NCBI GenBank assembly: GCA_902538185.1
Contig: CACBED010000001.1
Span: 34,195-98,194 of the forward strand
Source of the DNA: an uncultured OCS116 cluster bacterium
Lineage (GTDB): Bacteria > Pseudomonadota > Alphaproteobacteria > Rhizobiales > TMED25
Reading direction: 5' to 3'
DNA length: 64,000 bases
Both the position numbers and the translations under genes were made by a program. Position 1 is the stretch's first letter. The number at the start of each line of letters is the position of its first letter. This document shows, one piece after another, positions 5,280-38,369 of this stretch. The notes below the pieces were generated by a model. The model saw only the letters and a list, made by a program, of their open reading frames with translations, was not told the DNA's origin and searched no databases.

Positions 5280-5290
5280 TGATTAGATTA

Positions 5291-10947: not shown

Positions 10948-10975
10948 TACAACTTCACTTTAACGCGATCAGCAT

Positions 10976-11611: not shown

Positions 11612-12012
11612 TTAAAATCGAAAAAAATATTCAATACTTACTTTCCTTCTTTGTGATACTCATCCTTATTTTTTTTGCTGTAGTCAATTCAAAAACAATA
11701 TGTGATGATCTCGATGGCAAAAGTAGAAATGGAGTTCTATTTTTAAAAGAATCTAAGAAACCTTATACAGGGAGAAGCTTGTGTATCTGGGATATTAATA
11801 ATACCGTTTGGTATGAGGGTAATTATAAAGATGGGCTAAAAGAGGGCTTATGGACTTTCTACAATATTGACTCAACTAAAAAATCAGAAATAAATTATGA
11901 AAATGGAAAGATGCATGGTGTTAGACTAATTTATAACTCCAATAATCAAATAATGAAGCGAATGGAATGCAAAGAGAATATTTGTAAAACTGTGAACCAA
12001 TCAATTGATTAA
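11608..12012 (+). CDS. Exported or membrane-anchored MORN-variant repeat protein (YwqK-like); function unknown
   Basis: 134 aa with an N-terminal hydrophobic segment (LLSFFVILILIFFAVV) and repeats of the type YEGNYKDGLKEGLWTFY / INYENGKMHG. Confidence 0.5.
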   Translation: MIKIEKNIQYLLSFFVILILIFFAVVNSKTICDDLDGKSRNGVLFLKESKKPYTGRSLCIWDINNTVWYEGNYKDGLKEGLWTFYNIDSTKKSEINYENGKMHGVRLIYNSNNQIMKRMECKENICKTVNQSID

Positions 12013-12063
12013 AATAAACTGTACGTATATGATACCATAAGGTTCAAATATGCTGAGGAGAGG

Positions 12064-19574: not shown

Positions 19575-20264
19575 TTATTTTGCGTCAGATGTAGCAGCAA
19601 CCCATATAACAACACCAAATGCGATTTTGTTAACAAAATCAGCAAGGTTGTATATGATGTTGAGCGCGTCTGCACTTCCGGCACCAGCGTAACCAAGTAC
19701 ATAGCCGAGTGGGTAAATTGCCCAACCAACTGTTACTATGATTCTCAAAGCATTAAATGCTCGTTGAGATGCTGGGGTACCATCACTTGCACTAATTTTA
19801 CTTGCTTCACCAGCAAATATTTCGTAAATGATGTAGATCCAACCTGCCATTCCGATGATGAAAGCAAGCCAGACATTCATTGCACCTACTTCACCGAGAT
19901 AACCGGCAACTAGCATTATAACTGATGCGATGAGCAGGCGCCAGAATAGTGACGCTGCAACCACAGCAATAGCTGCTAGTATTAAGTAGAATTCAACAAT
20001 TTGAAGTGGTACGGTTAACAGCCAGTCTACATATCGGAATACGATTGGGGACTCGCCTGTGCTAACCCAAACATCACGCATGTAGAAATAATGGATGGCA
20101 GCAATACCTGTAACCATTGCGGCTACAGTTAGAGATGTTTTCCATTTACCAACTGCGCGATCTCTTTCTACCCAGAAAAAGAATGTTGCTGCAACCATAG
20201 CTGCAGATATAATCCAGAAACTTACACCGACGTAATCAGCTGGATTGAGTGCTCCTGTTGTCAT
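19575..20264 (-). CDS. Proteorhodopsin, DTE-motif proton pump type, blue-tuned (Gln at the position equivalent to 105)
   Basis: 229 aa, 7 TM. FRYVDWLLTVPLQIVEFYL gives Asp (acceptor), Thr and Glu (donor) with PR spacing, with Gln at the spectral tuning site. The Schiff-base Lys sits in NLADFVNKIAFG, and the His in AAIHYFYMR is conserved. AAGGGAGA lies 6 nt upstream of the ATG. Confidence 0.95.
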   Translation of the reverse strand: MTTGALNPADYVGVSFWIISAAMVAATFFFWVERDRAVGKWKTSLTVAAMVTGIAAIHYFYMRDVWVSTGESPIVFRYVDWLLTVPLQIVEFYLILAAIAVVAASLFWRLLIASVIMLVAGYLGEVGAMNVWLAFIIGMAGWIYIIYEIFAGEASKISASDGTPASQRAFNALRIIVTVGWAIYPLGYVLGYAGAGSADALNIIYNLADFVNKIAFGVVIWVAATSDAK

Positions 20265-20381
20265 AATAGTTCTCCCTTTTAAAAATTAACTATATAACCC
20301 CTTATTTCCTTACACATAAAATATTGGAAAAATATGCTAAAAACAATGTTTTTTTATAAAAAAGTAGTAACTTTATGTTAA
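20265..20381 (-). promoter_or_regulatory. Proteorhodopsin 5' region (Shine-Dalgarno plus presumed promoter)
   Basis: 117-nt AT-rich spacer, one of only four spacers over 100 nt in the window. The SD AAGGGAGA (plus-strand 20271-20278) is visible. A possible TTGTTT-N17-TATTTT pair on the minus strand is only a by-eye guess. Confidence 0.35.
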
Positions 20382-21068
20382 CTATTTTTGCTTTGTTATT
20401 ACGTCAACTAAGACTGCAACTATCAAATTTAGGATTGTTATTGATCCTATTGCGACAAAACTATAGAAGTATGCCCATGCCCACCAGTATATCTCCTGCA
20501 TTGGTAGCATCACATTTTCCCAACTTGATAGTGTGAGAACTTGAACAAGGGTAATCATCGATATTCCCAGATCTCCCCATCTCTGTGGATCTGATTGTCC
20601 AAATAGAATACTTCCAAATGATGCATAAACGTAGATAATTATGAACAGGAGTAAGGATACATAAAACACCCTTTTTATTGATTTTAATAGTGCTTCGATT
20701 AATTCTTTTAGTTCTGGTATGGCAGATATTAATCTTAAAACTCTAAATATTCTCAATAATCTTAGAACGAGTATTGATGAATTTGGGCCGATGGGAATAA
20801 TGGAAATTATCACAATTAAGCTATCAAAAATATTCCACCCATTTTTAAAAAAATGCAGTTTCTTATCCTCAGCAAAGAATCTTATACAAATTTCAATAAC
20901 AAAGAAAATAGTGATTAGTGTATCTAAAATATAAATAAATGCTATTGCTTGCGGAGGTATATTATAAGTTGAAACACCAACTAAAAAAGCTGATAATATT
21001 ATAGCACTAATTACAAATGCTTGAAAAAGTCGATTATTTTTTATCTTTTCAAATGAAGTTCTATTCAT
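20382..21068 (-). CDS. Single-domain voltage-gated cation channel (BacNav/NaChBac-like, 6 TM)
   Basis: 228 aa. S4 reads LVLRLLRIFRVLRLIS, with four Arg at every third position. The pore region LVQVLTLSSWENVMLPM aligns by eye to NavAb LFQVMTLESWSMGIVRPLM. S6 reads ITILNLIVAVLVDVI, and the protein ends 4 residues after S6. Confidence 0.85.
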   Translation of the reverse strand: MNRTSFEKIKNNRLFQAFVISAIILSAFLVGVSTYNIPPQAIAFIYILDTLITIFFVIEICIRFFAEDKKLHFFKNGWNIFDSLIVIISIIPIGPNSSILVLRLLRIFRVLRLISAIPELKELIEALLKSIKRVFYVSLLLFIIIYVYASFGSILFGQSDPQRWGDLGISMITLVQVLTLSSWENVMLPMQEIYWWAWAYFYSFVAIGSITILNLIVAVLVDVITKQK

Positions 21069-21397
21069 TTATTGGTACCGACTTTTTTTGTTATTTTCTT
21101 TATCCACTCACCAAAATCTTTGTCAATATTATTGATGGGAAAGCTCACAATGCATGGCATTTCATATGAATGATTTTCTTTAATGAGAGCAGATATCCCA
21201 TCAAAATTTTCTTCAATTGTCTTTAAAAATAACGCGCATTCACTTTCACTGGAAATCTTACTATCCCACTTAAAAATGGATAAAATCTTTGGAATAATAT
21301 TTCCGCACGCAATCAAATTCTTATCCAATAAAATTTTTGTAATATGCGTCGCTTCATCTTCTGAGGTGCATGTCGTATAAATCATAATAAAATTCAT
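21065..21397 (-). CDS. cutA: Divalent-cation tolerance protein CutA
   Basis: 110 aa reading IYTTC...ITKILLDKNLIACGNI...S.FKW...E.ALFLKT...I.ENHSYE.P, which is the CutA1 pattern. It has ATGA overlaps with both neighbours. Confidence 0.85.
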   Translation of the reverse strand: MNFIMIYTTCTSEDEATHITKILLDKNLIACGNIIPKILSIFKWDSKISSESECALFLKTIEENFDGISALIKENHSYEMPCIVSFPINNIDKDFGEWIKKITKKVGTNK

Positions 21398-22458: not shown

Positions 22459-23361
22459 TTATTTAATAAATTGCCCCGTATTTAAATCATGCATCGCTTG
22501 CATCAGCTCATTTCTTGAATTCATAACGATTGGACCATGCCATGCAATCGGCTCACTAATCGGCTTTCCTGAAACAAGTAGGAACCTAACACCTTCTTCA
22601 CCTGTATGAAGAGAGACAAACTCTCCAGGATCAAAGTATATCAAGGTTTTATTACCCGATAAATCTCGTATATTTAATTCCCTCCCTTCAAACTCTTTTT
22701 CAACTCTAATTCCGGCTGGAGCTGAAGCATATTTGAAATCTGCCTTACCATCAAAAATATACGCAAAAGTCTTCTTGTATGTATCTATTTTTATTACTTT
22801 ATGGGTATGCGGAGGTATGGATATATCCAAAAACTCTGGCTCGGCGGCGATGCCATCAACCGGTCCTAAAATCCCTCTATAATTACCAACGATGACTTTA
22901 ATTTTTGATCCATCGTCATCTTCAATAACTGGTATATTTGATAAATTAATATCTTGATACCTAGGCGTTGTCATTTTTTTTTCTGAGGGGAGATTTGCCC
23001 ATAATTGAAAGCCATGCATCTGACCATTCTTATTACCCTGAGGCATTTCTTGATGCATTATTCCCGAACCAGCAGTCATCCACTGGACATCACCACCCGA
23101 TAATAATCCTGTATTTCCTAAACTATCTTTGTGTTCTACAGTTCCCTCTAAGACATATGTTATAGTCTCAATACCTCTATGGGGATGCCATGGAAATCCA
23201 GCCTTATAACATTCTGGGTCATCATTTCTGAAATCATCTAAAAGTAAAAATGGGTCAAATTTCTCTGGCTCCATGAAGCCGAAGACTCTATCTAGAGAAA
23301 CTCCAGCCCCTTCAATGACAGGTTTCGGTTTTGAGATAGTTGTTATTGGCCTAAACGACAT
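22459..23361 (-). CDS. Pirin family protein (bicupin)
   Basis: 300 aa with FPWHPHRGIETITYVLEGTVEHKD (pirin metal motif) and GFQLWANLP. Confidence 0.9.
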   Translation of the reverse strand: MSFRPITTISKPKPVIEGAGVSLDRVFGFMEPEKFDPFLLLDDFRNDDPECYKAGFPWHPHRGIETITYVLEGTVEHKDSLGNTGLLSGGDVQWMTAGSGIMHQEMPQGNKNGQMHGFQLWANLPSEKKMTTPRYQDINLSNIPVIEDDDGSKIKVIVGNYRGILGPVDGIAAEPEFLDISIPPHTHKVIKIDTYKKTFAYIFDGKADFKYASAPAGIRVEKEFEGRELNIRDLSGNKTLIYFDPGEFVSLHTGEEGVRFLLVSGKPISEPIAWHGPIVMNSRNELMQAMHDLNTGQFIK

Positions 23362-23370
23362 ATCAATCCT

Positions 23371-23583
23371 TCAATCTAATAATTTTACTATTGTAATTAC
23401 TGCCATAGTAATACCTAATGCGAAAGAAATTATTATCACCAACCCAAGAATACTTGCAATCCTGCTTAAAAAATGTGGCACTTCTAAATTCTTAATTTCA
23501 CGGGACTTAATCTTATGAAAGATATACCCCGATACAAGGAAAATCGCTAACAGTACTAATGTATATTTAAGTTCGTTAATCAT
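23371..23583 (-). CDS. Small two-TM membrane protein, hypothetical
   Basis: 70 aa with two hydrophobic helices (YTLVLLAIFLVSGYIF; ILGLVIIISFALGITMAVITIV). Lies 9 nt upstream of pirin. No recognisable family. Confidence 0.4.
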   Translation of the reverse strand: MINELKYTLVLLAIFLVSGYIFHKIKSREIKNLEVPHFLSRIASILGLVIIISFALGITMAVITIVKLLD

Positions 23584-23676
23584 ATTTGTATATTCATATA
23601 GGCATATTAAAACAGTTTACTAGGATCAATAAAAATTATATCCTCATAATTAAATACATGCAAACAGGACAAAAAA

Positions 23677-24495
23677 ATGCCAATTATAAAAAAATTTGAT
23701 GATGTTGAATACAATAAGATAGACCAAGATATCCTGTGTAAAAATTTACTTCGAAAAGATGATCTTGATGATGGCAGAATAACAATTGATTATTATAAGC
23801 TCTCAAATAAAGCCCAACTAAATTATTTAAACGAAGATAGTGACATTAGCTGGATACAAATATTATCTGGAGGCATAAAGGCATCTGAGAGTGACTTTAA
23901 TAAGGATCAGATTGTATTGATAAAGGGTAAAAGGGAAATACAATTAAGTACATCCAGAGATACGGAGTTAGTAATAACAAAAATAAATGATTATAAGATA
24001 TTTGAAAGCGATGCTTCCGATGTCTTTGACTCGCAAATTAACATAATTAATTGGGGCAATGAGCCAATTCTAAAATCCGAGCATGATGATAGGAAGAGGG
24101 TATATTTATTATCAGAGCTCCTTGCGGGCACAGACTCAGTGAAAGGTGAATTAATAATATACCCAAAAAACACATCCTGTCCCGAGCACTATCATGTTGG
24201 CGCACAGCACTACCAGCTAATTACCGAGGGTGAAGTCATCGCAGTCCTCGATGGCAAAGAGACAAAACTTGAAAAGTATGATGTCTTATATAATTTTGAG
24301 AACGAACCGCATTGGTTTTATACAAATGAAAAAAGCTGCGATTTTGTAGAATTTTTTGTACCAGGCGAAAATAAAACAGTTTGGACAAAAACAACCAATG
24401 TTTGTACTTGGTCACCAATGGGTGTTGATGTAAATGGCCAGTCACCATCAAGACATATTGAAAAACACGTGCATGGTGAAGGAAAAAATATATAA
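23677..24495 (+). CDS. Cupin-domain protein (degenerate N-terminal plus intact C-terminal cupin), function unknown
   Basis: 272 aa. The C-terminal half reads PEHYHVGAQHYQLITEGEV...ENEPHWFYTN, which fits cupin motifs 1 and 2 with Gln in place of the usual motif-1 Glu. Confidence 0.6.
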   Translation: MPIIKKFDDVEYNKIDQDILCKNLLRKDDLDDGRITIDYYKLSNKAQLNYLNEDSDISWIQILSGGIKASESDFNKDQIVLIKGKREIQLSTSRDTELVITKINDYKIFESDASDVFDSQINIINWGNEPILKSEHDDRKRVYLLSELLAGTDSVKGELIIYPKNTSCPEHYHVGAQHYQLITEGEVIAVLDGKETKLEKYDVLYNFENEPHWFYTNEKSCDFVEFFVPGENKTVWTKTTNVCTWSPMGVDVNGQSPSRHIEKHVHGEGKNI

Positions 24496-24636
24496 AAAGT
24501 GATCCAAAGATAAAACCATACCGTTTCGTTTGTGTGTGGGTAGATGATAGTTAGTATTACCAAACCTCATCTTACATACTATATCAACATATCCCTATAA
24601 ATCCCTAAAGGTTGATCTCACTTACCCACACTATAC

Positions 24637-24966
24637 TTATCCAATTTTTGTTGCTCCAGTTTCACATTGAATCAATTTCCCATCTTTTTTGGTATATGCC
24701 GCTAAAACAGCTTCTTTTGTATTATCAGGGAATGCGATTACCATGTGTTCAACAAGAATATCATCATTCTCATAAACGCATCTGTGACTTTCAACATTGA
24801 AACTGTCACTGTTAAAAAACCCCTCGATCATTGCTAAGGTTTCGTCTTTATTCATAGTTGTTCCAGTCTGATGTCTAACAAATGTATAATTATCAGATAG
24901 CAACTCACCGAATGCAACGTGATCTTTATTTTCTCTTGCCAACTTCATTTTTTCAAAAAAACTCAT
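24637..24966 (-). CDS. Small hypothetical protein, possibly NTF2-like (SnoaL/DUF4440-like)
   Basis: 109-aa ORF with a size and alpha+beta-looking pattern compatible with the NTF2-like fold. No diagnostic motif recognised. Confidence 0.35.
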   Translation of the reverse strand: MSFFEKMKLARENKDHVAFGELLSDNYTFVRHQTGTTMNKDETLAMIEGFFNSDSFNVESHRCVYENDDILVEHMVIAFPDNTKEAVLAAYTKKDGKLIQCETGATKIG

Positions 24967-25056: not shown

Positions 25057-26427
25057 ATGAATTTAAACGAATACGAAAAAATAGATAGAGAATATCTTAT
25101 CCACCCTATGACTCATCTCGCAAAGTTTGAACGCGGTGAAATCGATAATAGAATAATGAAAACTGCAAAAGGTGTAGAGATAATAGATGCTCAAGGTAAC
25201 TCATTCATAGACGCATTTTCTGGTCTGTATTGTGTAAATGTTGGTTATGGTTGCACAGATATTATTGACGCGATTAAAAAACAAGCAGAAGAGCTTGCAT
25301 ATTATCATTGTTATTATGGAAATGCCACTGAGGCTTCAATCAAATTATCTGATATGGTTATTGAGAGGGCACCAAATAACATGAAAAAAATATATTTTGG
25401 TTTATCTGGCTCTGACGCTAATGACACTAATATAAAATTATTGTGGTATTACAATAATCTTATCGGTCACACGAAGAAAAAGAAGATAATATCGAGGAGG
25501 GGTGGGTACCACGGAGCAAGTATTTTTACAGGCAGCCTTACAGGTATTGAAACATATCATTTCAATTATGATTTACCTATCAAAGGAATACTTCATACGG
25601 AGCCTGCATTTTATTTCCACAGAGCTGAACTAGATCAAACAGAAGATGAATATTCCCAATTTTGCGCGGACCAGCTCGAAGAGCTAATTTTAAAAGAAAA
25701 TCCAGATACTGTAGCTGGTTTCATTGCTGAGCCTGTTATTGGAAATGGAGGACTGGTACCTCCACCACATAATTACTGGCCAAGAATTAAAAGTGTCTTA
25801 GAGAAATACGATGTTGCACTTATATCAGATGAGGTTGTGACTGGTTTCGGCAGACTCGGAAAAATGTTTGGTGTTGATTATTTTGGGATCGAAGCTGATA
25901 TGATCACTGTCGCCAAGGGTATTACCTCGGCATACTCTCCACTATCAGGGTCGATATTATCAGAAAAAATATCTAATGTAATAAGGGATGCAACTGACAA
26001 ATACGGAGTTTGGACACATGGTTCTACCTATTCTGCCCACCCAATATCTTGTGCAGCTGGAGTCGCGAATTTAAATCACATAGATAATCATCAACTTATT
26101 AAAAAAGGTAAGGATACATCCGAATACTTTAATTTCAAACTAAAAGAGAAATTTCAAGATCACCCTCAAATAGGCGATGTAAGGGGGATTGGATTACTAT
26201 CTGCTATTGAGCTTGTAAAAGATAAGAAAAATAGGAAATTTTTTAAAAAAAGGGGGCAATTATCTCAAGAGATAGTAACGAGGATGGCAAGAAATGGCAT
26301 TTTGGCTCGAGCAATGCCAGCAGGTGATACAATTGGTTTTGCTCCTGCTTTCTGTATTAGTAATGATGAAATTGACACCATACTCAATGGAACCCTTCAA
26401 AGTATAGATGAAGTAATTAATAATTAA
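25057..26427 (+). CDS. Class III (omega) aminotransferase, PLP-dependent
   Basis: 456 aa with SGSDANDT, ISDEVVTGFGRLG and TVAKGITSAY (PLP Lys), as in omega-amino acid:pyruvate / diaminobutyrate-type transaminases. Confidence 0.88.
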   Translation: MNLNEYEKIDREYLIHPMTHLAKFERGEIDNRIMKTAKGVEIIDAQGNSFIDAFSGLYCVNVGYGCTDIIDAIKKQAEELAYYHCYYGNATEASIKLSDMVIERAPNNMKKIYFGLSGSDANDTNIKLLWYYNNLIGHTKKKKIISRRGGYHGASIFTGSLTGIETYHFNYDLPIKGILHTEPAFYFHRAELDQTEDEYSQFCADQLEELILKENPDTVAGFIAEPVIGNGGLVPPPHNYWPRIKSVLEKYDVALISDEVVTGFGRLGKMFGVDYFGIEADMITVAKGITSAYSPLSGSILSEKISNVIRDATDKYGVWTHGSTYSAHPISCAAGVANLNHIDNHQLIKKGKDTSEYFNFKLKEKFQDHPQIGDVRGIGLLSAIELVKDKKNRKFFKKRGQLSQEIVTRMARNGILARAMPAGDTIGFAPAFCISNDEIDTILNGTLQSIDEVINN

Positions 26428-27157
26428 TTTGCGCCAATGCGGAAATTATGGATGGATCGGTCTCAATTGGACCGGAAATAGGAGGTTTTAATGACCATGG
26501 TAATCCTTCAGTTGCCTCTGCAAAGGTAAAATTATCAAGCATACTATGTAGCAACCAACCATCATCCGACATTATAAATTTTGCTTTATCGGTTATCAGA
26601 ACTGAGGGACCTTCTGGCAAATTTAGTTGCTCTCTAATTTTCTTAATATCCCTCCCAGAGCCAGGGCTAGTTGCAAAATCAACAGTGTCAACAAACCGCC
26701 TCGGATCATGAGGCATCAGAATAATTAAATTTGGTATTAAACATGCAATATCATGTGCTCCACCCGACCCGACCATCCTTATCTTTGGATCATCATAGCC
26801 TCCAATAACGGTTGAATTTAAGTTTCCAAATTTATCAATTTGGGCTGCAGATAGTAAACCAACATCTATTCTACCGGCCTGCAAATCTGAAAACACGGTG
26901 AGACTATCTGTTATCATATCCGCACCGTGTGCGATTGATGGGCTACCAGTCGAATAAGACTTAGAAAGAGGTAGAGCACCAATTGCGCCTGACTCATAAA
27001 TAAGATTGAGCTCTGGTTCGACACTGAGTTTTGCCAAGCATGCTGCGTCGGATGGAATACCAATCCCAACAAAACAGGACTTGTGCCCCACAAGTTCGGA
27101 TGCTGCAATTATCGCGATCCGCTTATTTGGGCTGTATTCTCTGTAGTCAATCTTCAT
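26417..27157 (-). CDS. Family I CoA-transferase subunit B (glutaconate CoA-transferase-like)
   Basis: 246 aa with the catalytic-Glu context LIYESGAIG. Its start overlaps the 3' end of the subunit A gene by 11 nt. Confidence 0.8.
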   Translation of the reverse strand: MKIDYREYSPNKRIAIIAASELVGHKSCFVGIGIPSDAACLAKLSVEPELNLIYESGAIGALPLSKSYSTGSPSIAHGADMITDSLTVFSDLQAGRIDVGLLSAAQIDKFGNLNSTVIGGYDDPKIRMVGSGGAHDIACLIPNLIILMPHDPRRFVDTVDFATSPGSGRDIKKIREQLNLPEGPSVLITDKAKFIMSDDGWLLHSMLDNFTFAEATEGLPWSLKPPISGPIETDPSIISALAQINY

Positions 27158-28040
27158 TTTTTACTCCGCATAGCCCCTCTTCAAGCTCTTTGATTTTTGT
27201 ATTTCCAATTATCTTTTTATATTCTTTTATATTTCTAACATCATGAACCCAATTTTTAAGGTAGCTAGATAGTTTATCCTCATCTCTTGATGTTGCATCA
27301 TATTCAATATAATGATCATCATCCCTTGAATAATAACCCGAAACGTATGATGGGTATGCACCCCATGGAAGTTCAATAATATTAGAAACTCTGTGCGATG
27401 GTATAACTGTTTTTTCGGGTGACTCTTTTATTTTTGAATTACTAATAATTTTTTCAACACTGACAATAATCTTATCTGATGCAAGCGCCCCTTCAATAGT
27501 GTCACCGTCAATACCCCACATTTGAACATTTCCATACTTATCAGCACATTGCGCGTGTATGAGTGCAATATCAGGCTTTAGCGCGGGAATTGCCGAAAAT
27601 TTGTGCCCTGTGTATGGACATGTAATTTGTTTTAAATAAGCAATATTACTAGGCTTATCTCCAATCTGAAGAATCTTTGATGGGACAAAACTAACACCCA
27701 TCCTTGCTGCATGTAATCTCATTATGATCGACTGATTTGTCCACTCTTCAATCTCTATTGATTTTTTTTTGTATGCTCTGCTAAATGAGTGCGACAAACC
27801 AACAGTTGGATTCCCAACATAACCAAAAATTATTTTTTTTACAATTTCAGATGCTATTAATTGGTCGAATAAAATATCTGCCCCCGATCGGCAAATGGTT
27901 AAATCAACTATTTTTTGGCGTATGAGCTCATGCGAGAGATAGAATGGTATTAAGTGACCAAAGCCGCCGATAAATATAGTATCACCAGCATTTACATTAT
28001 TCTTTATTGCGTGTTGTACTGTTGAAGTTTTATCAATCAT
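27147..28040 (-). CDS. Family I CoA-transferase subunit A (glutaconate CoA-transferase-like)
   Basis: 297 aa with N-terminal GDTIFIGGFG, typical of CoA-transferase alpha subunits. Paired with subunit B. Confidence 0.8.
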   Translation of the reverse strand: MIDKTSTVQHAIKNNVNAGDTIFIGGFGHLIPFYLSHELIRQKIVDLTICRSGADILFDQLIASEIVKKIIFGYVGNPTVGLSHSFSRAYKKKSIEIEEWTNQSIIMRLHAARMGVSFVPSKILQIGDKPSNIAYLKQITCPYTGHKFSAIPALKPDIALIHAQCADKYGNVQMWGIDGDTIEGALASDKIIVSVEKIISNSKIKESPEKTVIPSHRVSNIIELPWGAYPSYVSGYYSRDDDHYIEYDATSRDEDKLSSYLKNWVHDVRNIKEYKKIIGNTKIKELEEGLCGVKNED

Positions 28041-28052
28041 AAAATTTGATTT

Positions 28053-29252
28053 TTAAATAACGTTCTTTGTATGAAGTTCTTTTATATACTCTTCATCGTA
28101 TCCAAGGGAGGATAAAACATCATAGTTATCTTCTCCAAGAAGCGGTGGCGCTTTATCTATCTGCGCTGGTGTATCCGAAAATCTATATGGGACACCCAAC
28201 ATCTTAAGTGTTCCAGCTTCTGAATGCTCTATATTTACGACCATGTCATTGGCTATCGTCTGTTCGTCTGCTAGCGCGCTTTCAACAGAATTCACAGCGC
28301 TTGCAGGTATGTCTGAACTCAATAGCTTCTCGAGCCATTCTGTAACTGTTTTGCCAGCAATAACATTCTGTATTTCTTGATCTATTAATTGTCTGTTTAT
28401 TACTCTGTCAGCATTTTTAGTGAACCTTATATCTGTTGCCCACTCTTCTTTGTTCAAACATGCGGCAAATTTTGCAAATTGAGTATCGTTTCCAACAGCG
28501 ATAGCAATACTACCATCATTCGCCTCAAAAGTCCTGTAGGGCACGATATTTGGATGCCCATTTCCAAATCGTCTTGCTGGCTTACCGCTAACAAGGTGAT
28601 TAGCCGCAACATTAACTAACATCGAAATGCTGGTTGTGTACAAGCTGGTCTCTACTTTTTGCCCTTTACCAGTGTTGTATCTGGAATTTAATGCTCCCAA
28701 AATAGATATTGTTGCATTCATCCCTGTACATATATCGACTAATGCAACACCAACTTTCATCGGTTCTCCGTTTTCTTCACCTGTGATACTCATTAGCCCA
28801 CTTTCAGCTTGAAGCAGAAAGTCATACCCTGGTCTTTTACCTCTTGGACCTCTACCACCATATCCTGTAATCTGGCAATGTATGAGCTGAGGTGCTTCTT
28901 TCTCTCTCCATTCGTCACTGATCCCATAGCTATCCATTGTGCCATACTTAAAATTTTCTATCAGAACGTCAGCTTCCTTGAGCAGTCGTTTAAGGATGTC
29001 GATACCTTCCTGAGATTTTAAGTTTAATGTCACACTTTTTTTATTTCTGTTGATACCGAGGAAATATGCAGCTTCACTCCCTGCAAATGGAGGGCCCCAC
29101 GCTCTTGTGTCATCACCTTTTCCGGGTTGCTCAATCTTGATGATTTCTGCACCCATATCTCCAAGATTCATAGTACAAAATGGACCCGCCAATATTCTGC
29201 TTAAGTCTAGCACCTTAATGCCAGTTAGAGGGCCCTGTTCTTTTTTAGCCAT
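28053..29252 (-). CDS. Family III CoA-transferase (CaiB/BaiF family)
   Basis: 399 aa with GPLTGIKVLDLSRILAGPFCTMNLGDMGAEIIKIEQPGKGDDTR, the family N-terminal signature. Confidence 0.88.
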   Translation of the reverse strand: MAKKEQGPLTGIKVLDLSRILAGPFCTMNLGDMGAEIIKIEQPGKGDDTRAWGPPFAGSEAAYFLGINRNKKSVTLNLKSQEGIDILKRLLKEADVLIENFKYGTMDSYGISDEWREKEAPQLIHCQITGYGGRGPRGKRPGYDFLLQAESGLMSITGEENGEPMKVGVALVDICTGMNATISILGALNSRYNTGKGQKVETSLYTTSISMLVNVAANHLVSGKPARRFGNGHPNIVPYRTFEANDGSIAIAVGNDTQFAKFAACLNKEEWATDIRFTKNADRVINRQLIDQEIQNVIAGKTVTEWLEKLLSSDIPASAVNSVESALADEQTIANDMVVNIEHSEAGTLKMLGVPYRFSDTPAQIDKAPPLLGEDNYDVLSSLGYDEEYIKELHTKNVI

Positions 29253-29269
29253 AAATTGTCCTTTTTGCG

Positions 29270-30136
29270 CTAGTTAGGTCTCTCGTTTTCATCATTATCA
29301 AGTCCATCAAGGTATGCCTCAACATTTTCTTTTCTTCTTTCACGGAACTGCTGAAAGTCGGGTTTCCTTTTTTCGAGAAATGCATTCATACCTTCAAGAG
29401 ACTCTTCAGAACCCCATACATGAGCGAGGAGTTCCATACCATGCTGCCAACTTGCATATAACGTATCAGAGTCATGATTGAGTGATTTCTTTGTCTGTCT
29501 TATGGTCTGACCGCTTCTCTCAATAAGCCCCTCGCACCACTTTTGGGTTTCTTCGTCTAACTTATCTTTTGGAACCACTTTATTGATTAATCCGATGCTA
29601 ACAGCTTCTTCTGCAGTGAATCGTCTCGCCATAAAAATCATTTCCTTTGCCAACCTTGACCCAATTAGTTGTGGAAGATATTGAGTTGCCCCAACAGTAG
29701 GACAAGCCCCTACTACTGCACCGCTTTGGCCAAATATTGCGTCATCTGCAGCAATAACCAAATCACACCAAAGTGCAAGCTCGTGACCACCACCCATGCA
29801 GTAGCCATGAACAGATGCAACTACTGGTATTGGTAGGCCTCTAATAGCCATTGCTAGCGCTAACATGCGGTCATTCCAGTGCGCTGCGTTGATCCAATCT
29901 AATCTCATCATTGCATGAAAATCACCACCTGCAGAGAAAGCCTTATCACCGACTCCATTAATCACAACACACACGATTGATGGATCGTTACGCGTAGATA
30001 GAACAGCGTCAGTTAACTCATCCAGAGTCTGCTCACGGAATGCATTTCTTACTTCAGGTCTATTTATTGAAATCCATGCAACATTGTTTCTAATTTCAAA
30101 TAATACTTCTTTATATTCACCACCAGCTTTTGACAT
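29270..30136 (-). CDS. Crotonase-superfamily enzyme of the MenB/BadI-like branch
   Basis: 288 aa with INRPEVRNAF, GDKAFSAGGD, GGGHELALWCDLVIAADDAIFGQSG and EGMNAFLEKRKPDFQQF. These parallel E. coli MenB INRPQVRNAF / GDKAFCSGGD / GGGH..CDLTIAADNAIFGQTG / KRQPDFSKF. Confidence 0.85.
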   Translation of the reverse strand: MSKAGGEYKEVLFEIRNNVAWISINRPEVRNAFREQTLDELTDAVLSTRNDPSIVCVVINGVGDKAFSAGGDFHAMMRLDWINAAHWNDRMLALAMAIRGLPIPVVASVHGYCMGGGHELALWCDLVIAADDAIFGQSGAVVGACPTVGATQYLPQLIGSRLAKEMIFMARRFTAEEAVSIGLINKVVPKDKLDEETQKWCEGLIERSGQTIRQTKKSLNHDSDTLYASWQHGMELLAHVWGSEESLEGMNAFLEKRKPDFQQFRERRKENVEAYLDGLDNDENERPN

Positions 30137-30181
30137 TTTTACCTCTGCTAATTTTATTAAATTTTTGACAAATGAAAATTA

Positions 30182-30631
30182 TCATTCTTTTTCATGCTCT
30201 TCAACCTCAATCAGTGCACCGCAAACCTCACTTGGGTGAATAAAATATAAATTTCTTCCATGATAACCTGTTGTTGGTTCTGATAAGATATTTATTTTCT
30301 TTTCTTTTTGGTCTCCATACGCCTGGTTGAGATCCCTAACGGCAAGACAATAATGGTGTAATCCACCTTTTGGATTTTTTCGTAAATAATTAGCGATAGG
30401 GGATTTATCACTCAAGGGTTCCATGAGCTCAATCTTTAAATTTGCAAAAGATACCATCGCAATCTTGATGTCTTGCTTTTCTATTATTTTGATATCAGAT
30501 ACTTTAGCGCCAAAAACTGTTTTATATTGACTTATCGCATCTTCAATATTTGGAACTGCATGTGCAATATGGTCTACGCTAAAATTGGAATGATCCATCT
30601 CAATCTCATCATTACTCATAATTTTATACAT
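30182..30631 (-). CDS. VOC-superfamily protein, methylmalonyl-CoA epimerase-like
   Basis: 149 aa with VDHIAHAVPNIEDA...IELMEP...GGLHHYCLAV, the glyoxalase/MCE metal-ligand pattern (H, E, H, E-type). Confidence 0.75.
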   Translation of the reverse strand: MYKIMSNDEIEMDHSNFSVDHIAHAVPNIEDAISQYKTVFGAKVSDIKIIEKQDIKIAMVSFANLKIELMEPLSDKSPIANYLRKNPKGGLHHYCLAVRDLNQAYGDQKEKKINILSEPTTGYHGRNLYFIHPSEVCGALIEVEEHEKE

Positions 30632-30756
30632 AAAAAATAAAAATAATTATCTATACTATTTAATATATGAATAAAAAAAAATCTATGTTTAATGAAAAAT
30701 ATTTTATATGGTACTTTATATGTTCAACTCAAGATAACTTACTGTGAGGAAATTCA

Positions 30757-31677
30757 ATGCTAAATCCTTTTAATCAACCAGAACTAATAAAAGCTGAGGT
30801 ATTCACTGAACTACCAGAAAAATACAGGGATACGAGACAAACGGCATGGTCAAACCCAAATAGACAAGGTGCAAAAGTGAATCAATTTCTTGAAGGCCCC
30901 TCTTTTGACAGAAATGGTAATTTGTATGTAACAGATATTCCTTTCGGTAGAATTTTTAAGATATCTCCAGACGGTGAATGGGATATTGTTTGTGAATATG
31001 ATGGTTGGCCAAATGGATTAAAATTCCATAAAGATGGCTCCGCTTATATTGCCTGCTATAAACAAGGCTTAATGAAATTAGACGTAAACTCAGGATCGAT
31101 TGAGCCAATAATAGAGACTATGTATTCTGAGGGATTTAAAGGCCTAAATGATCTTCACTTTACATCAAACGGAGATCTATATTTTACTGACCAAGGTCAG
31201 ACGGGAATAATAGATCCAACCGGTAGGGTATTTAGGCTAACTGCAGGTGGTGAATTACATAAACTTGTGACAAACGCACCGAGCCCAAATGGTATAACGG
31301 TGAATAATTCCGAAAATCAAGTGTATGTAGCTATTACAAGGTCTCAACAAATATGGCGACTGCCTCTAATGGCAGATAACAGTGTGAGCAAAAGCGGTGT
31401 TGCAATACAGTTATCTGGGGGACATGCTGGACCAGATGGACTTGAAATGGATTCCGAAGACGGAATGATTGTAAATCACTTAGGGGTCGGTGTTTGGAGA
31501 TTTGATAGTAATTGTCTGCCAACACATCTTATTTATACGGATAATCATAGTTTGATGACAAATACGGCATTTGGTGGCCCAGATAGAAAAACGCTCTATA
31601 TAACCGACTCAATGAATGGAAGGATAATGAGGGCTTCATTACCGGTTGCGGGCAAACTTTTATATGGATTATCCTAG
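30757..31677 (+). CDS. SMP-30/gluconolactonase/LRE-family beta-propeller hydrolase
   Basis: 306 aa with EGPSFDRNGNLYVTD, PNGL, LNDL and PDGLEMD repeats typical of the six-bladed lactonase fold. Confidence 0.8.
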   Translation: MLNPFNQPELIKAEVFTELPEKYRDTRQTAWSNPNRQGAKVNQFLEGPSFDRNGNLYVTDIPFGRIFKISPDGEWDIVCEYDGWPNGLKFHKDGSAYIACYKQGLMKLDVNSGSIEPIIETMYSEGFKGLNDLHFTSNGDLYFTDQGQTGIIDPTGRVFRLTAGGELHKLVTNAPSPNGITVNNSENQVYVAITRSQQIWRLPLMADNSVSKSGVAIQLSGGHAGPDGLEMDSEDGMIVNHLGVGVWRFDSNCLPTHLIYTDNHSLMTNTAFGGPDRKTLYITDSMNGRIMRASLPVAGKLLYGLS

Positions 31678-31718
31678 TTAGAGTTTTAAAATATTGATAG
31701 GGATATATTGGTGTAATT

Positions 31719-32912
31719 ATGAATAATGCTCAATTCATTAATGATCTTAATGATACATGTAAAGCAATTTTAAAAGAGAAATACCCTGTTTTTAGTGAGG
31801 CAGAATATCAAAGAAGATTTTCCCTTATTGAGACTGTCATCAAACAAAAAAAATTAGATAAAGTTATCATATATGAAGCACTTGGCTCAGGTAATGCTGT
31901 ACAATATTTTACTGGATGGCATACAACACAAGAAGCTCTTGTTGAGATTAGAGAAAATGAAAATTTAAATTTGTACGTAGAACATTACAATCACCTCCCA
32001 ATGGCTGAGAAGCTTATCAATAATAGAACAAAATTATTTTGGGGGCAAAGACAACTCGCAAATAAAATATTACCTGAAATGATAGATGACCTCGGTCAAA
32101 ATAATACCATAGGAATAATTGGGAGATTACCATACAACTATATAACCATGCTTCAGCAAAAAAATATAAAAATCATTGACATCTCCAAAGACTATAATTT
32201 GATGAGATCAATAAAAAGTAATGAGGAAATATCATGGATGAAAATTGCTGCTGCACTCACAGACGAGGGTATAAATAATATTGTCTCAAACTTAAAGCCG
32301 GGCCTCAATGAACACGAGATGTCTGAGATAACCCAGTGCGGTTATTTAAAGCATGGAGGTCACAAGATAATCAATTTCTTTGGAATCACGGATATGGATA
32401 ATCCAGAAAATTGTGTTCCGTATCAATATACATCAAACAAAAACATTACACAAAATGATATAATTACAACTGAGATAAGCTCCCACTTTTGGAATTATCC
32501 AGGACAAGTACTCAGAACCATCGGCTTTAAAAAAATGACCCCACTGTATAATGACTTACACGATGTAGGTGATGAGGTCTTCAGTACTATTTTTTCGATT
32601 CTGAAAGATGGGACAACAATTGAAGATATCAATGCAGTATCATCTAAAATTGAGGATGGTAGTTTTTCAATCTGGGATGACCTAATTCATGGTTATGGGG
32701 GTGGCTATTTAGACCCAGTACTTGGAACAAAAAGTCGTCCGGCTAGCAGTTATGAAGGATTCACATTTAAAGAAAATATGACGGTTGTTATTCAGCCCAA
32801 TGTCATAACAAATGACCATAAGGCTGGTATTCAGACTGGAGAATTAGTTCATATACGAAAAGATAAGACGGTTAGAATGCACAGTTTCAAGATGGGATAT
32901 ATTGAACTGTAA
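31719..32912 (+). CDS. M24-family (creatinase / Xaa-Pro peptidase fold) hydrolase with atypical metal site
   Basis: 397 aa with a creatinase-type N-domain plus a pita-bread C-domain (NDIITTEIS...NYPGQVLRT...IHGYGGG...VVIQPN...GELVH). Confidence 0.75.
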   Translation: MNNAQFINDLNDTCKAILKEKYPVFSEAEYQRRFSLIETVIKQKKLDKVIIYEALGSGNAVQYFTGWHTTQEALVEIRENENLNLYVEHYNHLPMAEKLINNRTKLFWGQRQLANKILPEMIDDLGQNNTIGIIGRLPYNYITMLQQKNIKIIDISKDYNLMRSIKSNEEISWMKIAAALTDEGINNIVSNLKPGLNEHEMSEITQCGYLKHGGHKIINFFGITDMDNPENCVPYQYTSNKNITQNDIITTEISSHFWNYPGQVLRTIGFKKMTPLYNDLHDVGDEVFSTIFSILKDGTTIEDINAVSSKIEDGSFSIWDDLIHGYGGGYLDPVLGTKSRPASSYEGFTFKENMTVVIQPNVITNDHKAGIQTGELVHIRKDKTVRMHSFKMGYIEL

Positions 32913-32928: not shown

Positions 32929-35385
<2,457 letters not shown>

Positions 35386-35437
35386 TCAATGTTAATATTA
35401 GATAAAAAAAAACGTGATTCTGCAAGTTTTTAATCGA

Positions 35438-36604
35438 TTAGACCCCATTGTGATCTAGTTTTCCATCATTAATATTAAATATGTCTGTTTTATCACTTAT
35501 GCAGTCAAACAAATGTTCGGATGTACCCGTTAACCAAGTCTGTGAACCAATATCCCCAATCTGCTCAAATAAATTTGAAACCCGCTCATTATCCATATGG
35601 GCAGTAATCTCATCCAATAAAAGTATCGGTGATGTACCATTATTTATTTCTTGATACACTCTTGCTTCAGCTAAAATCACTGAAACAAGAAGATTTTTTT
35701 GTTCTCCAGTCGAACAGTTCTCAGCGTACATATCATTCTTATTATAATAAAGCGTAAAATCAGTTCTGTGGGGGCCTACGTTAGTTCTAAACGTGTCTCG
35801 ATCTTTTATGCGGAATTGAAAAAATAATTTTTGAAGCTGTTCTTCTATTTCTATCATTGATGATCTTGTATTTATATCACCAAGCTCCTCTCTCATAACA
35901 ATCTTAGCTGATGGAAATAAGTTATTTTTTACTTCTGCATCCATGATTTTGTTTAGTCTATTTGTCGCAATTTGGCGTGATATAAGTATGTTTGCAGCAA
36001 TTTTTGATATCTGTTTCTCTATTTTATCAAGCCAACTTTTCTTATCATCCATGTCCACCAGAACCCTATTTCTTTGCATGATTAGTCGATCATAATCTTT
36101 AATATTTTTCTCATGGATTGGTTCAATTAAACAAACCAACTTATCAAAGAATTTCCTCCTGTCTGTTCTTTGCCCAATAAAAAGTCTGTCCATTTGGGGC
36201 GTAAGCCAAATAATCCCAATGTAATCGGTAAATTCCCGAGAGCTTTTTAGAAATTTCCCGTCCACACGGCACTGCCTAGCTCTACCTTCCATTATTTGTG
36301 AACTGCCTATGCCTGTTCCTAATTTTGTTATTCCCTTAGCTGTTTTTACCTCCATAAATATTGACCATCCACCATTCCCCTTGATGTTTGATTGCTCAGA
36401 TAATTGGGCGCCTCTTAAGCCTTTCCCAGAAGAAAACATTGAAACAGCTTCAATGACGTTTGTTTTTCCCGACCCATTTTTTCCAACGAAAGCAACAAAT
36501 TTTTTATCGGTTTCTATAGATGTAAAACTATGATTTCGAAAATCTGTCAGGTTCAACTTGCTAATGTCAACAAAATTTGAAGCTGCTTTTTCTACTTTAT
36601 CCAT
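35438..36604 (-). CDS. recF: DNA replication and repair protein RecF
   Basis: 388 aa with Walker A GKNGSGKTN, signature STGEQK and LLDEITAHMD. Lies upstream of gyrB. Confidence 0.9.
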   Translation of the reverse strand: MDKVEKAASNFVDISKLNLTDFRNHSFTSIETDKKFVAFVGKNGSGKTNVIEAVSMFSSGKGLRGAQLSEQSNIKGNGGWSIFMEVKTAKGITKLGTGIGSSQIMEGRARQCRVDGKFLKSSREFTDYIGIIWLTPQMDRLFIGQRTDRRKFFDKLVCLIEPIHEKNIKDYDRLIMQRNRVLVDMDDKKSWLDKIEKQISKIAANILISRQIATNRLNKIMDAEVKNNLFPSAKIVMREELGDINTRSSMIEIEEQLQKLFFQFRIKDRDTFRTNVGPHRTDFTLYYNKNDMYAENCSTGEQKNLLVSVILAEARVYQEINNGTSPILLLDEITAHMDNERVSNLFEQIGDIGSQTWLTGTSEHLFDCISDKTDIFNINDGKLDHNGV

Positions 36605-36639
36605 AAATTATATATTATAGCCAGATTAAGATATTTAAA

Positions 36640-37236
36640 TTATTTATTTGACTTACTGACGCCAACTCTTGCAGGTCTAAGAATTCTTTCGTTTATACGA
36701 TAGCCTGGTTCTACCAGATGAACAACTATTCCGGTCTCTTTTTCCGTGTCAGGAACTTCAAACATTGCTTCATGTAAAGTTGGGTCAAATTTTTCACCAG
36801 TAGGGTCAAATCTCTCAATACCATTTCTCTCGAGTATTTGGGTGAGGGACCTCATTGTTAATTGTACCCCTTCAGATAAGGTTTTAGTTGTTTCGTTATT
36901 ATCGAGGTTGATGTCCTTGATGCTATCTAGTGCTCTTTCTAGATCATCAGCTACGGTAACTATATCCCGAGCAAATTTTGTTGTTGAATACTTAATTGCA
37001 TCTTCTTTTTCCTTTAGACTTCTTTTTCGATAATTTTCCATCTCGGCGGCCATTCTTAAAATTCGATCGTTTGCCTCTTCTAGCATTTCAGTTAAATCAG
37101 GCTTATCCTTTGTCGCCTCACTCATGGAGCCCCCATCCTCAAGGTCTGACTCGTTGACTAATGCCGAGTCCTCCATTAGGTTCTCAATATCCTCATGTAA
37201 TTCTGGTTCTTTTTGTTTATCCTTTTTATCTTTCAT
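36640..37236 (-). CDS. grpE: Nucleotide exchange factor GrpE
   Basis: 198 aa reading R..AE.EN.RKR...E.......F.......DDLERAL, with a C-terminal beta domain ending RPA.V.VS. Confidence 0.92.
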   Translation of the reverse strand: MKDKKDKQKEPELHEDIENLMEDSALVNESDLEDGGSMSEATKDKPDLTEMLEEANDRILRMAAEMENYRKRSLKEKEDAIKYSTTKFARDIVTVADDLERALDSIKDINLDNNETTKTLSEGVQLTMRSLTQILERNGIERFDPTGEKFDPTLHEAMFEVPDTEKETGIVVHLVEPGYRINERILRPARVGVSKSNK

Positions 37237-37307
37237 TGACTTGCCAATCTTCTAAATTATTTAAATTCATAATAACTGTTGATCTTATTATATTCAATAT
37301 CACAAAT

Positions 37308-38369
37308 TTAACCTAAAATCTTCTTCATAAGCTCTGCAGTATAATTCACCATTGGTATTATTTTACCATAATTCATTCTCGTTGGGCCAATCACACCAAG
37401 TACCCCAATAACCTGCTTTTTTTCATTTTTATATGGTGTGACTATCATAGACGAGCCTGACAATGAGAATAATTTATTTTCAGATCCAATAAAAATTCTC
37501 ACCCCCTCAGCCTTTTCTGCCATTCCAAGTAATTCCATGATTTCTTGCTTATTTTCTAAATCTTGAAAGAGATGCCTGACCTTTTCAAGATCATCATTAG
37601 CCTCAATATTTGAGATTAACTTCGATGCACCTTTGACGATTAAGATCTTATCATCTTTATTATAATTTGAATTACTCCATGTTGCCAGACCTTGGGTTAA
37701 TAAATCTGTAGTTTCCTTGTCAAGTTCATTTTTCTTATGTACGAAATCGGACTCTATTCTCTTGACAGCCTCATTCAACGTAAGACCCCTCATGTGATGA
37801 TTAAGATAGTTACTCGCAGATGCCAAGCTAGAAGCTGTAATTCCCTCAGAATTATTTATAATTCTATTTTCAACTTTACCATCCTCATCTACAAGGATAA
37901 CGAGAATTTTTGTTTTATCGAGGGAAACAAATTCGATGTGCTTGACGTATTTTACATCTTTATTTACCGAAACAACTCCCGTGCAATTTGTTAAACCTGA
38001 TAGCATTTCGCTCGCCTTACTCAATGCGTCTTCTAATGTCATATTGTTTGTCATAGCCTGCTCTTTCATCGCAGCTTGATCTGTGTCGGTGAGATTGCCA
38101 ATCTCCAGCATTGCGTCAACAAATAATCTGAGGCCACCCTCCGTTGGTATCCTTCCCGAACTTGTATGAGGCGAATATATGAGACCCAAAGACTCTAAAT
38201 CATGCATAACGTTTCTAATTGAAGCGGCAGATAAATTTATTCTGTCCATTTGTGATACTGTTCTAGATCCAATTGGAAAACCCTTAGCCAAATACTCTTC
38301 AACAATTCTCTTAAAGATTTCTCGCGACCTATCGTCGAGATGAAATAGATTGGAATTCTTAATAGTCAT
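37308..38369 (-). CDS. hrcA: Heat-inducible transcription repressor HrcA
   Basis: 353 aa with an N-terminal winged helix (IFKRIVEEYLAKGFPIGSRTV) and IRN.M.DLE..GLI...HTSSGRIPT. Confidence 0.9.
   Translation of the reverse strand: MTIKNSNLFHLDDRSREIFKRIVEEYLAKGFPIGSRTVSQMDRINLSAASIRNVMHDLESLGLIYSPHTSSGRIPTEGGLRLFVDAMLEIGNLTDTDQAAMKEQAMTNNMTLEDALSKASEMLSGLTNCTGVVSVNKDVKYVKHIEFVSLDKTKILVILVDEDGKVENRIINNSEGITASSLASASNYLNHHMRGLTLNEAVKRIESDFVHKKNELDKETTDLLTQGLATWSNSNYNKDDKILIVKGASKLISNIEANDDLEKVRHLFQDLENKQEIMELLGMAEKAEGVRIFIGSENKLFSLSGSSMIVTPYKNEKKQVIGVLGVIGPTRMNYGKIIPMVNYTAELMKKILG

Follow-up and report, generated by a model that had tools for sequence, protein, structure and literature searches.

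A conserved gene module pairing a MenB/BadI-clade crotonase with a CaiB-type CoA-transferase in an OCS116 cluster bacterium, and its possible catabolic role

The window analyzed here, a 64,000-nt stretch of contig CACBED010000001.1 from an uncultured OCS116 cluster bacterium (assembly GCA_902538185.1), carries eight adjacent genes at nt. 25057–32912 that an initial annotation, made from the sequence alone, had treated as a single coenzyme A (CoA)-dependent catabolic cluster. Comparison across species showed that this cluster is composite, comprising a core of a crotonase, a family III (CaiB-type) CoA-transferase, and usually a VOC-fold protein, with a GctAB-like family I CoA-transferase and an SMP-30-type lactonase as optional members. 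The remaining two genes, which encode an aminotransferase and an M24 protein, are neighbors in the OCS116 lineage only and are not linked to the module. Our preferred, though still tentative, reading of the region is a conserved CoA-dependent catabolic module formed by one five-gene operon and the divergent lactonase gene, with the mechanism proposed below.

Conservation and layout of the gene cluster

Every window protein was compared by tblastn with the best 80 crotonase species loci, each extended by 10 kb in both directions, which comprised 14 species of the OCS116 lineage and 66 others (Paracoccaceae, Rhodospirillales, SAR116, other Hyphomicrobiales, and Acidobacteriota); neighboring open reading frames (ORFs) were clustered and the cluster representatives annotated. 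The CaiB-type gene lies directly downstream of the crotonase gene in 62 of the 66 non-OCS116 species, spanning several orders and two phyla, and the VOC gene sits beside the crotonase gene at a fixed upstream position in 37/66. The family I transferase genes occur within 10 kb of the crotonase gene in 10–11 of these species (10 for the alpha subunit), and the lactonase gene diverges from it in nine. The aminotransferase and M24 genes accompany the module in 14/14 OCS116-lineage species, but in 0/66 of the others. Co-conservation, which the initial annotation had proposed as a check, was therefore upheld for the crotonase–CaiB pair and the VOC protein, showed the GctAB-like enzyme and the lactonase to be optional, and did not extend to the aminotransferase and M24 protein, so that the eight genes can no longer be treated as one unit.

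The complete arrangement, with the lactonase gene divergent from the VOC, crotonase, CaiB-type, alpha-subunit, and beta-subunit genes, recurs on unrelated contigs at 58–79% identity (loci L003–L005, and L088 without the VOC gene). Using two peptide patterns of the orthogroup (GGHELALW and WQ[HQ]GMELL) on contigs from one genome per species, we obtained matches to at least 599 stretches, with 550 confirmed, and for the core gene pair, such patterns were matched in at least 550 species-level genomes. The carriers are marine, freshwater, and soil bacteria, including several abundant, mostly uncultured marine alphaproteobacterial clades. The crotonase orthogroup is very tight, with the best 120 database clusters 69–99% identical and homologues across the Alphaproteobacteria and Acidobacteriota 70–77% identical, and a crotonase-anchored scan recovered loci at 98–100% identity in single-cell genomes of the OCS116 cluster and metagenome-assembled genomes (MAGs) of the Rhodobiaceae. 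In a plasmid collection, the crotonase relatives were just 44–45% identical and lay in other contexts. We also noted that the window crotonase is 71–72% identical to homologues in Acidobacteriota MAGs (loci L048, L060, and L061), which is unusually high across phyla and suggests either that the core has spread horizontally or that constraint is extreme.

In the window, the eight ORFs match the coordinates given by the initial annotation exactly, and Pfam and NCBIfam agreed with it on every family. The VOC, crotonase, CaiB-type, and family I alpha- and beta-subunit genes lie close together in one minus-strand run, from nt. 30631 down to 26417; successive genes are 45, 17, and 12 bp apart, and the two subunit genes overlap by 11 bp. 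The lactonase and M24 genes, 41 bp apart on the plus strand, diverge from this run, as had been described, and the aminotransferase gene is convergent with the 3′ end of the operon, overlapping it by 11 bp. The 125-bp spacer from which the VOC and lactonase genes diverge (nt. 30632–30756), AT-rich on reading the sequence, presumably carries the promoters of both directions, judging from gene arrangement alone; promoter and terminator pattern scans gave matches not above shuffled background. The G+C content of the crotonase, CaiB-type, and beta-subunit genes is 41–43%, compared to a mean of 35% for the window. The reported absence of a regulator and transporter held for this DNA, with neither found between 24.6 and 36.6 kb of the window, but not for the module at large, given that GntR regulators and TctABC, ABC, or MFS transporters occur in related loci; the absence is peculiar to this streamlined genome.

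Among the 66 species, the most frequent recurrent neighbors of the core are an MLE-subgroup enolase (34/66), ACMSD-like proteins (24), 3HCDH-family proteins (17/66), TctABC (15), Ldh_2 (13), and GntR (11), joined by RidA-like proteins, GFO and SDR dehydrogenases, and luciferase-like monooxygenases. The enolase gene lies immediately after the CaiB-type gene, and its product finds its best PDB match in the N-succinyl-amino-acid racemase 2p88, with muconate cycloisomerases also among the matches. Amidohydro_2 neighbors were considered as alternative lactonases and rejected, as their match to human ACMSD (2e-51) marks them as ACMSD-like decarboxylases, and an ORF cluster that appeared to be a crotonase–CaiB fusion proved to be a molybdopterin subunit of the xanthine-dehydrogenase family. 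Such a xanthine-dehydrogenase/aldehyde-oxidase-family molybdopterin subunit occurs within 10 kb of the core in 14 loci (including L055, L063, L069, L071, and L079), often accompanied by luciferase-like monooxygenases and an LVIVD-repeat protein. In five SAR116 loci (L034, L041, L047, L049, and L066), the core lies among two FrsA-like alpha/beta hydrolases, an OsmC-domain protein, and an acetolactate-synthase-like thiamine diphosphate enzyme, together with a Cyclase-family protein, a TauE-type permease, and an SBP_bac_5 ABC transporter.

Locus L086 (nt. 6515–13413) carries a 3-oxoadipyl-CoA thiolase, PcaF (684 bits, cutoff 605), and a GCT-family alpha/beta pair, divergent from the VOC, crotonase, CaiB-type, and MLE genes, hinting at a C6-dicarboxylate end product; a second, unrelated CaiB–crotonase pair lies 8 kb upstream there with a flavin adenine dinucleotide protein and a ferredoxin. 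None of the NCBIfam equivalog models other than that of the epimerase reached its cutoff for the module proteins or recurrent neighbors tested, the neighbors passing an equivalog cutoff being the PcaF of L086 and a YbiC-type Ldh_2.

Enzymes of the module and its neighbors

The crotonase (nt. 29270–30136, minus strand), which served as the anchor of the module, belongs to the crotonase superfamily with an ECH_1 score of 237.9 bits (gathering score 27), and its G71 and G116 align with the oxyanion-hole residues G86 and G133 of MenB. In line with the MenB/BadI affinity seen in the initial annotation, its best NCBIfam matches are MenB and BadI, both well under cutoff (236.6 vs. 380 for NF005637 and 221.1 vs. 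342.7 for TIGR01929, the MenB models; 218.8 vs. 467.6 for TIGR03210, the BadI model), and its nearest PDB entry is MenB 2iex (3.6e-64). It shares 39% identity with E. coli MenB, 32% with CaiD, and 31% with ScpB. In a residue alignment to E. coli MenB, the catalytic residues of that enzyme, which we take to be Tyr97, Ser161, Asp163, and Tyr258, are replaced by Ile82, Ala144, Pro146, and Trp241, the last three of which are invariant in 15 orthologues, and MenB Val136 is replaced by Glu119, inside an invariant GGGHELALW motif. Glu136 and Pro163 (MenB numbering) are also present in the 44–45%-identical MenB-clade crotonases of Rhodococcus jostii RHA1 and Paraburkholderia.

Compared with the E. coli men locus, the window region holds none of menC, menE, menD, or menH. 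The RHA1 relative (45%) sits in a BadI-type cluster of an acyl-CoA dehydrogenase, a hydratase, an SDR, and a CoA-transferase; unlike in that context, no acyl-CoA dehydrogenase, second hydratase, or SDR adjoins the window crotonase. Given the replaced catalytic residues, the scores below cutoff, and the missing men context, we rejected a true MenB and assign the protein, on its sequence, to a functionally distinct subfamily within the MenB/BadI clade. As it lacks the catalytic residues of MenB, MenB-type chemistry cannot simply be assumed.

The CaiB-type protein (nt. 28053–29252, minus strand) falls within the family III (CaiB/BaiF/Frc) CoA-transferases by its CoA_transf_3 score (432.8 bits) and its catalytic aspartate, D173, which aligns with D169 of E. 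coli CaiB and is kept in five orthologues. Its nearest PDB entry is the human succinate-hydroxymethylglutarate CoA-transferase SUGCT (9br6, 1.7e-102), and we therefore describe it as SUGCT-like, although its score against the succinate-glutarate CoA-transferase equivalog NF052585 stays below cutoff (369.4 vs. 750). The family I enzyme comprises a GctA-like alpha subunit (nt. 27147–28040, minus strand; CoA_trans 90.6 bits), closest in the PDB to glutaconate CoA-transferase 1poi_A (3.8e-36), then to IpdA 6co6 and AibA 5mzw (near 3e-17), and a GctB-like beta subunit (nt. 26417–27157, minus strand) closest to 1poi_B (4.9e-26). Its two separately encoded subunits, together with the catalytic glutamate of the beta subunit, place it in the GctAB type. 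This residue, E55 in IYESG, aligns with the catalytic glutamate of GctB, as initially noted, and the ESG motif is kept in 15/15 subunit-B homologues collected, which argues for a true transferase. A 3-oxoacid CoA-transferase (PcaIJ/ScoAB) was rejected on scores of 37.9 vs. 243.55 and 69.2 vs. 128.5 (TIGR02428/TIGR02429). In locus L058, the family I subunit genes lie directly downstream of the crotonase gene in place of the CaiB-type gene, a swap that fits two interchangeable activating enzymes.

The VOC protein (nt. 30182–30631, minus strand), encoded by the first gene of the operon, scores 127.3 bits against the methylmalonyl-CoA epimerase equivalog TIGR03081 (cutoff 114.95), and eight of nine VOC proteins at the same position in other loci also pass this cutoff, the ninth scoring 113.7. 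By sequence it is a methylmalonyl-CoA-epimerase-class protein, putative as to its substrate.

The product of the divergent gene (nt. 30757–31677, plus strand) is a six-bladed propeller of the SMP-30/gluconolactonase fold, with 124.4 bits against the Pfam family SGL (SMP-30/gluconolactonase/LRE-like; gathering score 26.3), and is probably a lactonase, its nearest PDB entries being lactonase Drp35 (4.5e-20) and the beta-propeller lactonases 7ris/8djf. It forms a tight orthogroup (65–80% identity), and a reciprocal search with the alignment of its orthologues returned 80 metagenomic loci at 64–97% identity, mostly from soil and freshwater. Its commonest own context includes a 3HCDH-family gene upstream, GntR and Ldh_2 genes downstream, and an acid-sugar dehydratase nearby; in locus L163, the order is GD_AH dehydratase < 3HCDH < SGL > GntR > Ldh_2 > TctC. 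As this context lacks the CoA module in most loci, the lactonase is primarily a member of a sugar-acid-like set, which in certain lineages from marine and fresh waters is joined to the CoA module. The CoA-free set, seen in L163 (nt. 5125–11723) and also in L098, L116, L123, and L152 from freshwater and soil, is itself an apparently unassigned sugar-acid-like cluster, and a pirin gene lies near it in L163.

The class III (omega-type) aminotransferase (nt. 25057–26427, plus strand; Aminotran_3, 266 bits) scores 669 bits against NF005684 (cutoff 687). The M24 protein (nt. 31719–32912, plus strand), of the pita-bread fold, matches Peptidase_M24 with 66 bits, and its best PDB match, to the prolidase 1pv9, is weak (7e-13). 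Of the metal ligands of E. coli PepP, which we take to be D260, D271, H354, E383, and E406, D260 is replaced by Glu and D271 by Gln in the window protein and three orthologues; by eye, the position of E383 is a Gln in VIQPN, in a C-terminal half that aligned unreliably. The protein may belong with the creatinase-like members of this fold, which are not peptidases. A DddP-type dimethylsulfoniopropionate lyase was rejected, as no DddP structure was found among PDB matches at E<=1e-3, the best of which are prolidases.

Across the 14 species of the OCS116 lineage, synteny extends to all eight genes, with the M24 protein and aminotransferase down to 52–59% identity. The cupin and SnoaL-like genes of the flank are likewise syntenic in 14/14 and 12/14 of these species, respectively, and absent from the other 66, and the gyrB flank is equally syntenic, so this synteny reflects common descent rather than function. 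The aminotransferase and M24 genes were found near the lactonase in one of the 80 lactonase-anchored loci, itself from OCS116.

The cluster is flanked by pirin, cupin, and SnoaL-like genes upstream and by gyrB, recF, grpE, and hrcA downstream. The upstream genes (nt. 22459–24966) encode a pirin, a 272-amino-acid Cupin_2 protein, and the SnoaL-like protein; farther out, at nt. 19575–21397 and all on the minus strand, lie a bacteriorhodopsin-family gene (229 amino acids, Bac_rhodopsin 166 bits), a gene for a 228-amino-acid single-domain Ion_trans channel, and CutA1. On the other side (nt. 32929–38369), grpE and hrcA directly follow gyrB and recF, instead of dnaN and dnaA, and the cumulative GC skew has its minimum near 36–38 kb of the window.

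Proposed reactions and competing explanations

The following steps are inferred from family chemistry, the observed part being the catalytic aspartate of the CaiB-type protein, its proximity to SUGCT, and the GctB-like glutamate. In lineages having one, the lactonase would open the ring of a lactone, giving a hydroxy- or keto-(di)carboxylic acid. The CaiB-type enzyme would transfer CoA to this acid, taking it from succinyl-CoA or from the product-CoA of the pathway itself. The resulting substrate-CoA would have an acidic, substituted alpha carbon between the thioester and a second carbonyl, hence the methylmalonyl-CoA-class epimerase, with the VOC protein interconverting the epimers. The crotonase would then stabilize the thioester enolate and break a C–C bond of the beta-dicarbonyl thioester. 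By analogy to BadI and EchA20, this reaction may be a hydrolytic retro-Claisen cleavage of a beta-ketoacyl-CoA, which we regard as possible; a decarboxylation of a 2-substituted malonyl-CoA, as by E. coli ScpB, is only slightly less probable, and simple hydration is less likely. Finally, the GctAB-like enzyme would activate a second, C5-type dicarboxylate product or recycle CoA from the product, so that the pathway would need no ATP-dependent ligase. Judging by gene neighborhoods elsewhere, the substrate may be a lactone-forming sugar acid or another hydroxy-dicarboxylate. The general logic of the initial annotation (CoA transfer, beta-dicarbonyl thioester chemistry, and epimerization) thus holds on the grounds of family membership, while the removal of an amino or amidino group that it also envisaged gains no comparative support, with the aminotransferase and M24 genes in 0/66 species.

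We favor a CoA-dependent catabolic module because the crotonase–CaiB pair, the VOC protein, the family I transferase, and the lactonase are co-conserved outside the source lineage, and because the nearest characterized relatives of the crotonase, MenB and BadI, make or break C–C bonds beside a thioester. Several observations weigh against it. The crotonase lacks the Tyr/Ser/Asp/Tyr set of MenB and scores far under the BadI cutoff, which makes the retro-Claisen reaction a mere analogy, and no 3-hydroxyacyl dehydrogenase able to make a beta-keto substrate is present in the window. Just 8 of the 80 lactonase-anchored loci carry crotonase or CaiB orthologues, and the link between lactonase and module is facultative, most crotonase loci being without the lactonase and most lactonase loci without the crotonase. 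PcaF adjoins the core in a single locus (L086) out of 88. The neighborhoods are also heterogeneous (ACMSD-like decarboxylases, RidA-like proteins, MLE-subgroup enolases, and Mo-hydroxylases); the compounds fed into the core may vary from lineage to lineage, or its role may be a general one.

The decarboxylation sub-case can be framed as a specific pathway for alkylmalonates, a reading we hold to be conceivable but doubtful. Here, the CaiB-type enzyme would make (methyl/ethyl/hydroxy)malonyl-CoA from a free 2-substituted malonate and succinyl-CoA, the VOC protein would be a true methylmalonyl-CoA epimerase, and the crotonase would decarboxylate the ester to propionyl- or another acyl-CoA. This would suit a VOC protein that passes the epimerase cutoff in 9/10 module copies tested, a CaiB-type protein nearest to a dicarboxylate:succinyl-CoA transferase, the E. 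coli precedent of scpB–scpC, which pairs a crotonase-fold methylmalonyl-CoA decarboxylase with a CoA-transferase, and the absence of an acyl-CoA dehydrogenase, with a thiolase in one locus only. However, the crotonase is closer to MenB (39%) than to ScpB (31%), no mutase or carboxylase lies nearby in the window, and the lactonase, GctAB-like, MLE, and 3HCDH neighbors are left with no role. A CoA-dependent variant of the 3-oxoadipate (muconolactone) lower pathway, in which a muconate-type C6 dicarboxylate or lactone would be CoA-activated, isomerized or hydrated by the crotonase and VOC protein, opened by a lactonase or hydrolase, and end as 3-oxoadipyl-CoA, could draw on the MLE-subgroup enolase after the CaiB-type gene in 34/66 species, a PcaD/RutD-like alpha/beta hydrolase at that place in eight species, the bona fide PcaF and GCT-family pair of L086, and the preference of SUGCT-like and Gct-like transferases for C5–C6 dicarboxylates. 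We nonetheless consider it a minor and quite improbable rival, given the single locus with an adjacent PcaF, the lack of any ring-cleaving dioxygenase or CatC/PcaC, a window without MLE, thiolase, or hydrolase, and an enolase whose best structural match is a racemase and no muconate cycloisomerase.

The two remaining explanations differ in how much meaning is given to gene adjacency. One would have all eight genes act in a single pathway for an amino- or amidino-substituted cyclic osmolyte, opened or deamidinated by the M24 protein and relieved of its amino group by the aminotransferase. The synteny in 14 OCS116-lineage species, a probable co-transcription of the M24 and lactonase genes (41-bp gap), and the apparent loss of two metal ligands from the M24 protein, as in creatinase-type non-peptidase members, speak for such a pathway, but we judge it unlikely: the aminotransferase and M24 genes are absent from all other core-carrying species compared and near the lactonase in that one OCS116 locus, the aminotransferase gene is convergently transcribed, and the equal synteny of the cupin, SnoaL-like, and gyrB genes is explained by ancestry. 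The other would deny adjacency any functional meaning and place the genes in unrelated housekeeping roles, as the very heterogeneous neighborhoods around the core and the mostly separate lactonase orthogroup might invite. It is scarcely credible overall, given the crotonase–CaiB adjacency in 62/66 species of several orders and two phyla and the fixed position of the VOC gene in 37/66, with tight or overlapping gaps; it fails for the crotonase–CaiB–VOC core and is the default reading for the aminotransferase and M24 protein.

Returning to the CoA-dependent module, a more speculative extension is that the core performs a thiolase-independent, ATP-free cutting of beta-dicarbonyl acids (3-keto sugar acids, aldarates, or lactone-released alicyclic beta-keto acids), with a MenB-derived crotonase hydrolyzing or decarboxylating the CoA ester and the transferases passing CoA from product to next substrate. 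Such a core would have spread horizontally, and OCS116, SAR116, and marine Rhodospirillales would use it to consume a common, as yet unrecognized lactone or hydroxy-dicarboxylate component of dissolved organic matter. The folds and reaction types are familiar; what is new is their widely distributed combination without an assigned role and a MenB-clade crotonase with a remodeled active site. The relevant gene set is now narrowed to five or six genes instead of eight, and would act on beta-dicarbonyl/dicarboxylate CoA esters. If the substrate is found, the recurrent "enoyl-CoA hydratase-related / CoA transferase" annotation gap would gain a function, the MenB/BadI branch of the crotonase superfamily a new reaction specificity, and OCS116- and SAR116-type bacteria would be linked to one particular compound of the dissolved organic carbon.

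Comparison with known systems

We did not find this gene set described in a full-text literature search, which yielded analogies only (PMC5380842 and PMC6365646) and a further, unrelated sugar-acid paper (PMC12994016). The initial annotation had found no match to the carnitine, ectoine, benzoate, or methylmalonyl pathways, and this stood up to scrutiny; nor did we find an orthologous cluster belonging to a characterized pathway, on which the initial annotation would have given way. The carnitine cai operon was rejected against the reference E. coli operon, as no acyl-CoA dehydrogenase, ligase, or BCCT transporter lies between 19.5 and 38.4 kb, and the ectoine doe/eut system was rejected on M24 scores against the DoeA and EutD models (41.9 vs. 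575 and 28.7 vs. 613) and the lack of a deacetylase or dehydrogenase nearby.

With MenB and BadI, the nearest characterized relatives of the crotonase, the window protein has in common the fold and the oxyanion-hole glycines, along with the GGGH and FGQ(S/T)G motifs and a KRKPDF segment at the C terminus, and both enzymes make or break a C–C bond via a thioester enolate. The window differs in having no men genes and no BadK/BadH/AliB-type partners, its crotonase being paired instead with a CoA-transferase and an epimerase. The E. coli pairs CaiB/CaiD and ScpB/ScpC, like the module, combine a crotonase and a CoA-transferase, handling a free acid as its CoA ester and recycling CoA without a ligase, and AcuN/AcuK (acrylate) likewise pairs a crotonase with a CoA-transferase. 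However, the window crotonase is just 31–32% identical to CaiD and ScpB, caiA, caiC, caiT, a mutase, and ArgK are lacking from the window, and the module adds an epimerase-class VOC protein, a second transferase, and a lactonase.

In steroid ring C/D catabolism, the MenB-like crotonase EchA20 works with the GCT-family heterodimer IpdAB in hydrolytic ring opening (PMC5380842). There, too, a MenB-like crotonase adjoins a GCT-family alpha/beta pair, both acting on beta-keto/enoyl acyl-CoA intermediates (PMC5380842), and IpdA is the second-best PDB relative of the alpha subunit. In contrast, the window subunits are much nearer to true GctAB (4e-36 and 5e-26) than to IpdAB (3e-17 and 1.5e-4) and keep the transferase glutamate, no other steroid genes (ipdC, ipdF, fadE, or fadD3) are present, and the host genome is small, streamlined, and marine.

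In the oxidative deoxyribonate pathways, proposed from fitness data, a lactonase is combined with steps that oxidize and cleave a sugar acid in CoA-bound form (PMC6365646). The CoA-bound variant of Klebsiella michiganensis resembles the proposed scheme in its lactonase, CoA activation, beta-hydroxyacyl dehydrogenase, C–C cleavage of a 3-keto sugar acid, and product-releasing CoA-transferase (PMC6365646), and loci related to the window carry 3HCDH, SDR/GFO dehydrogenases, and Mo-hydroxylase subunits. Unlike in the window, which itself has no dehydrogenase, cleavage in these pathways is by a thiolase or BKACE, and no epimerase takes part. Finally, while the identities to human SUGCT and Acidaminococcus GctAB are ~40% or lower, under the NCBIfam equivalog cutoffs, and the physiological context is another, these enzymes come closest to the two transferases in both structure and sequence, with the catalytic residues kept, and both use C5–C6 dicarboxylates.

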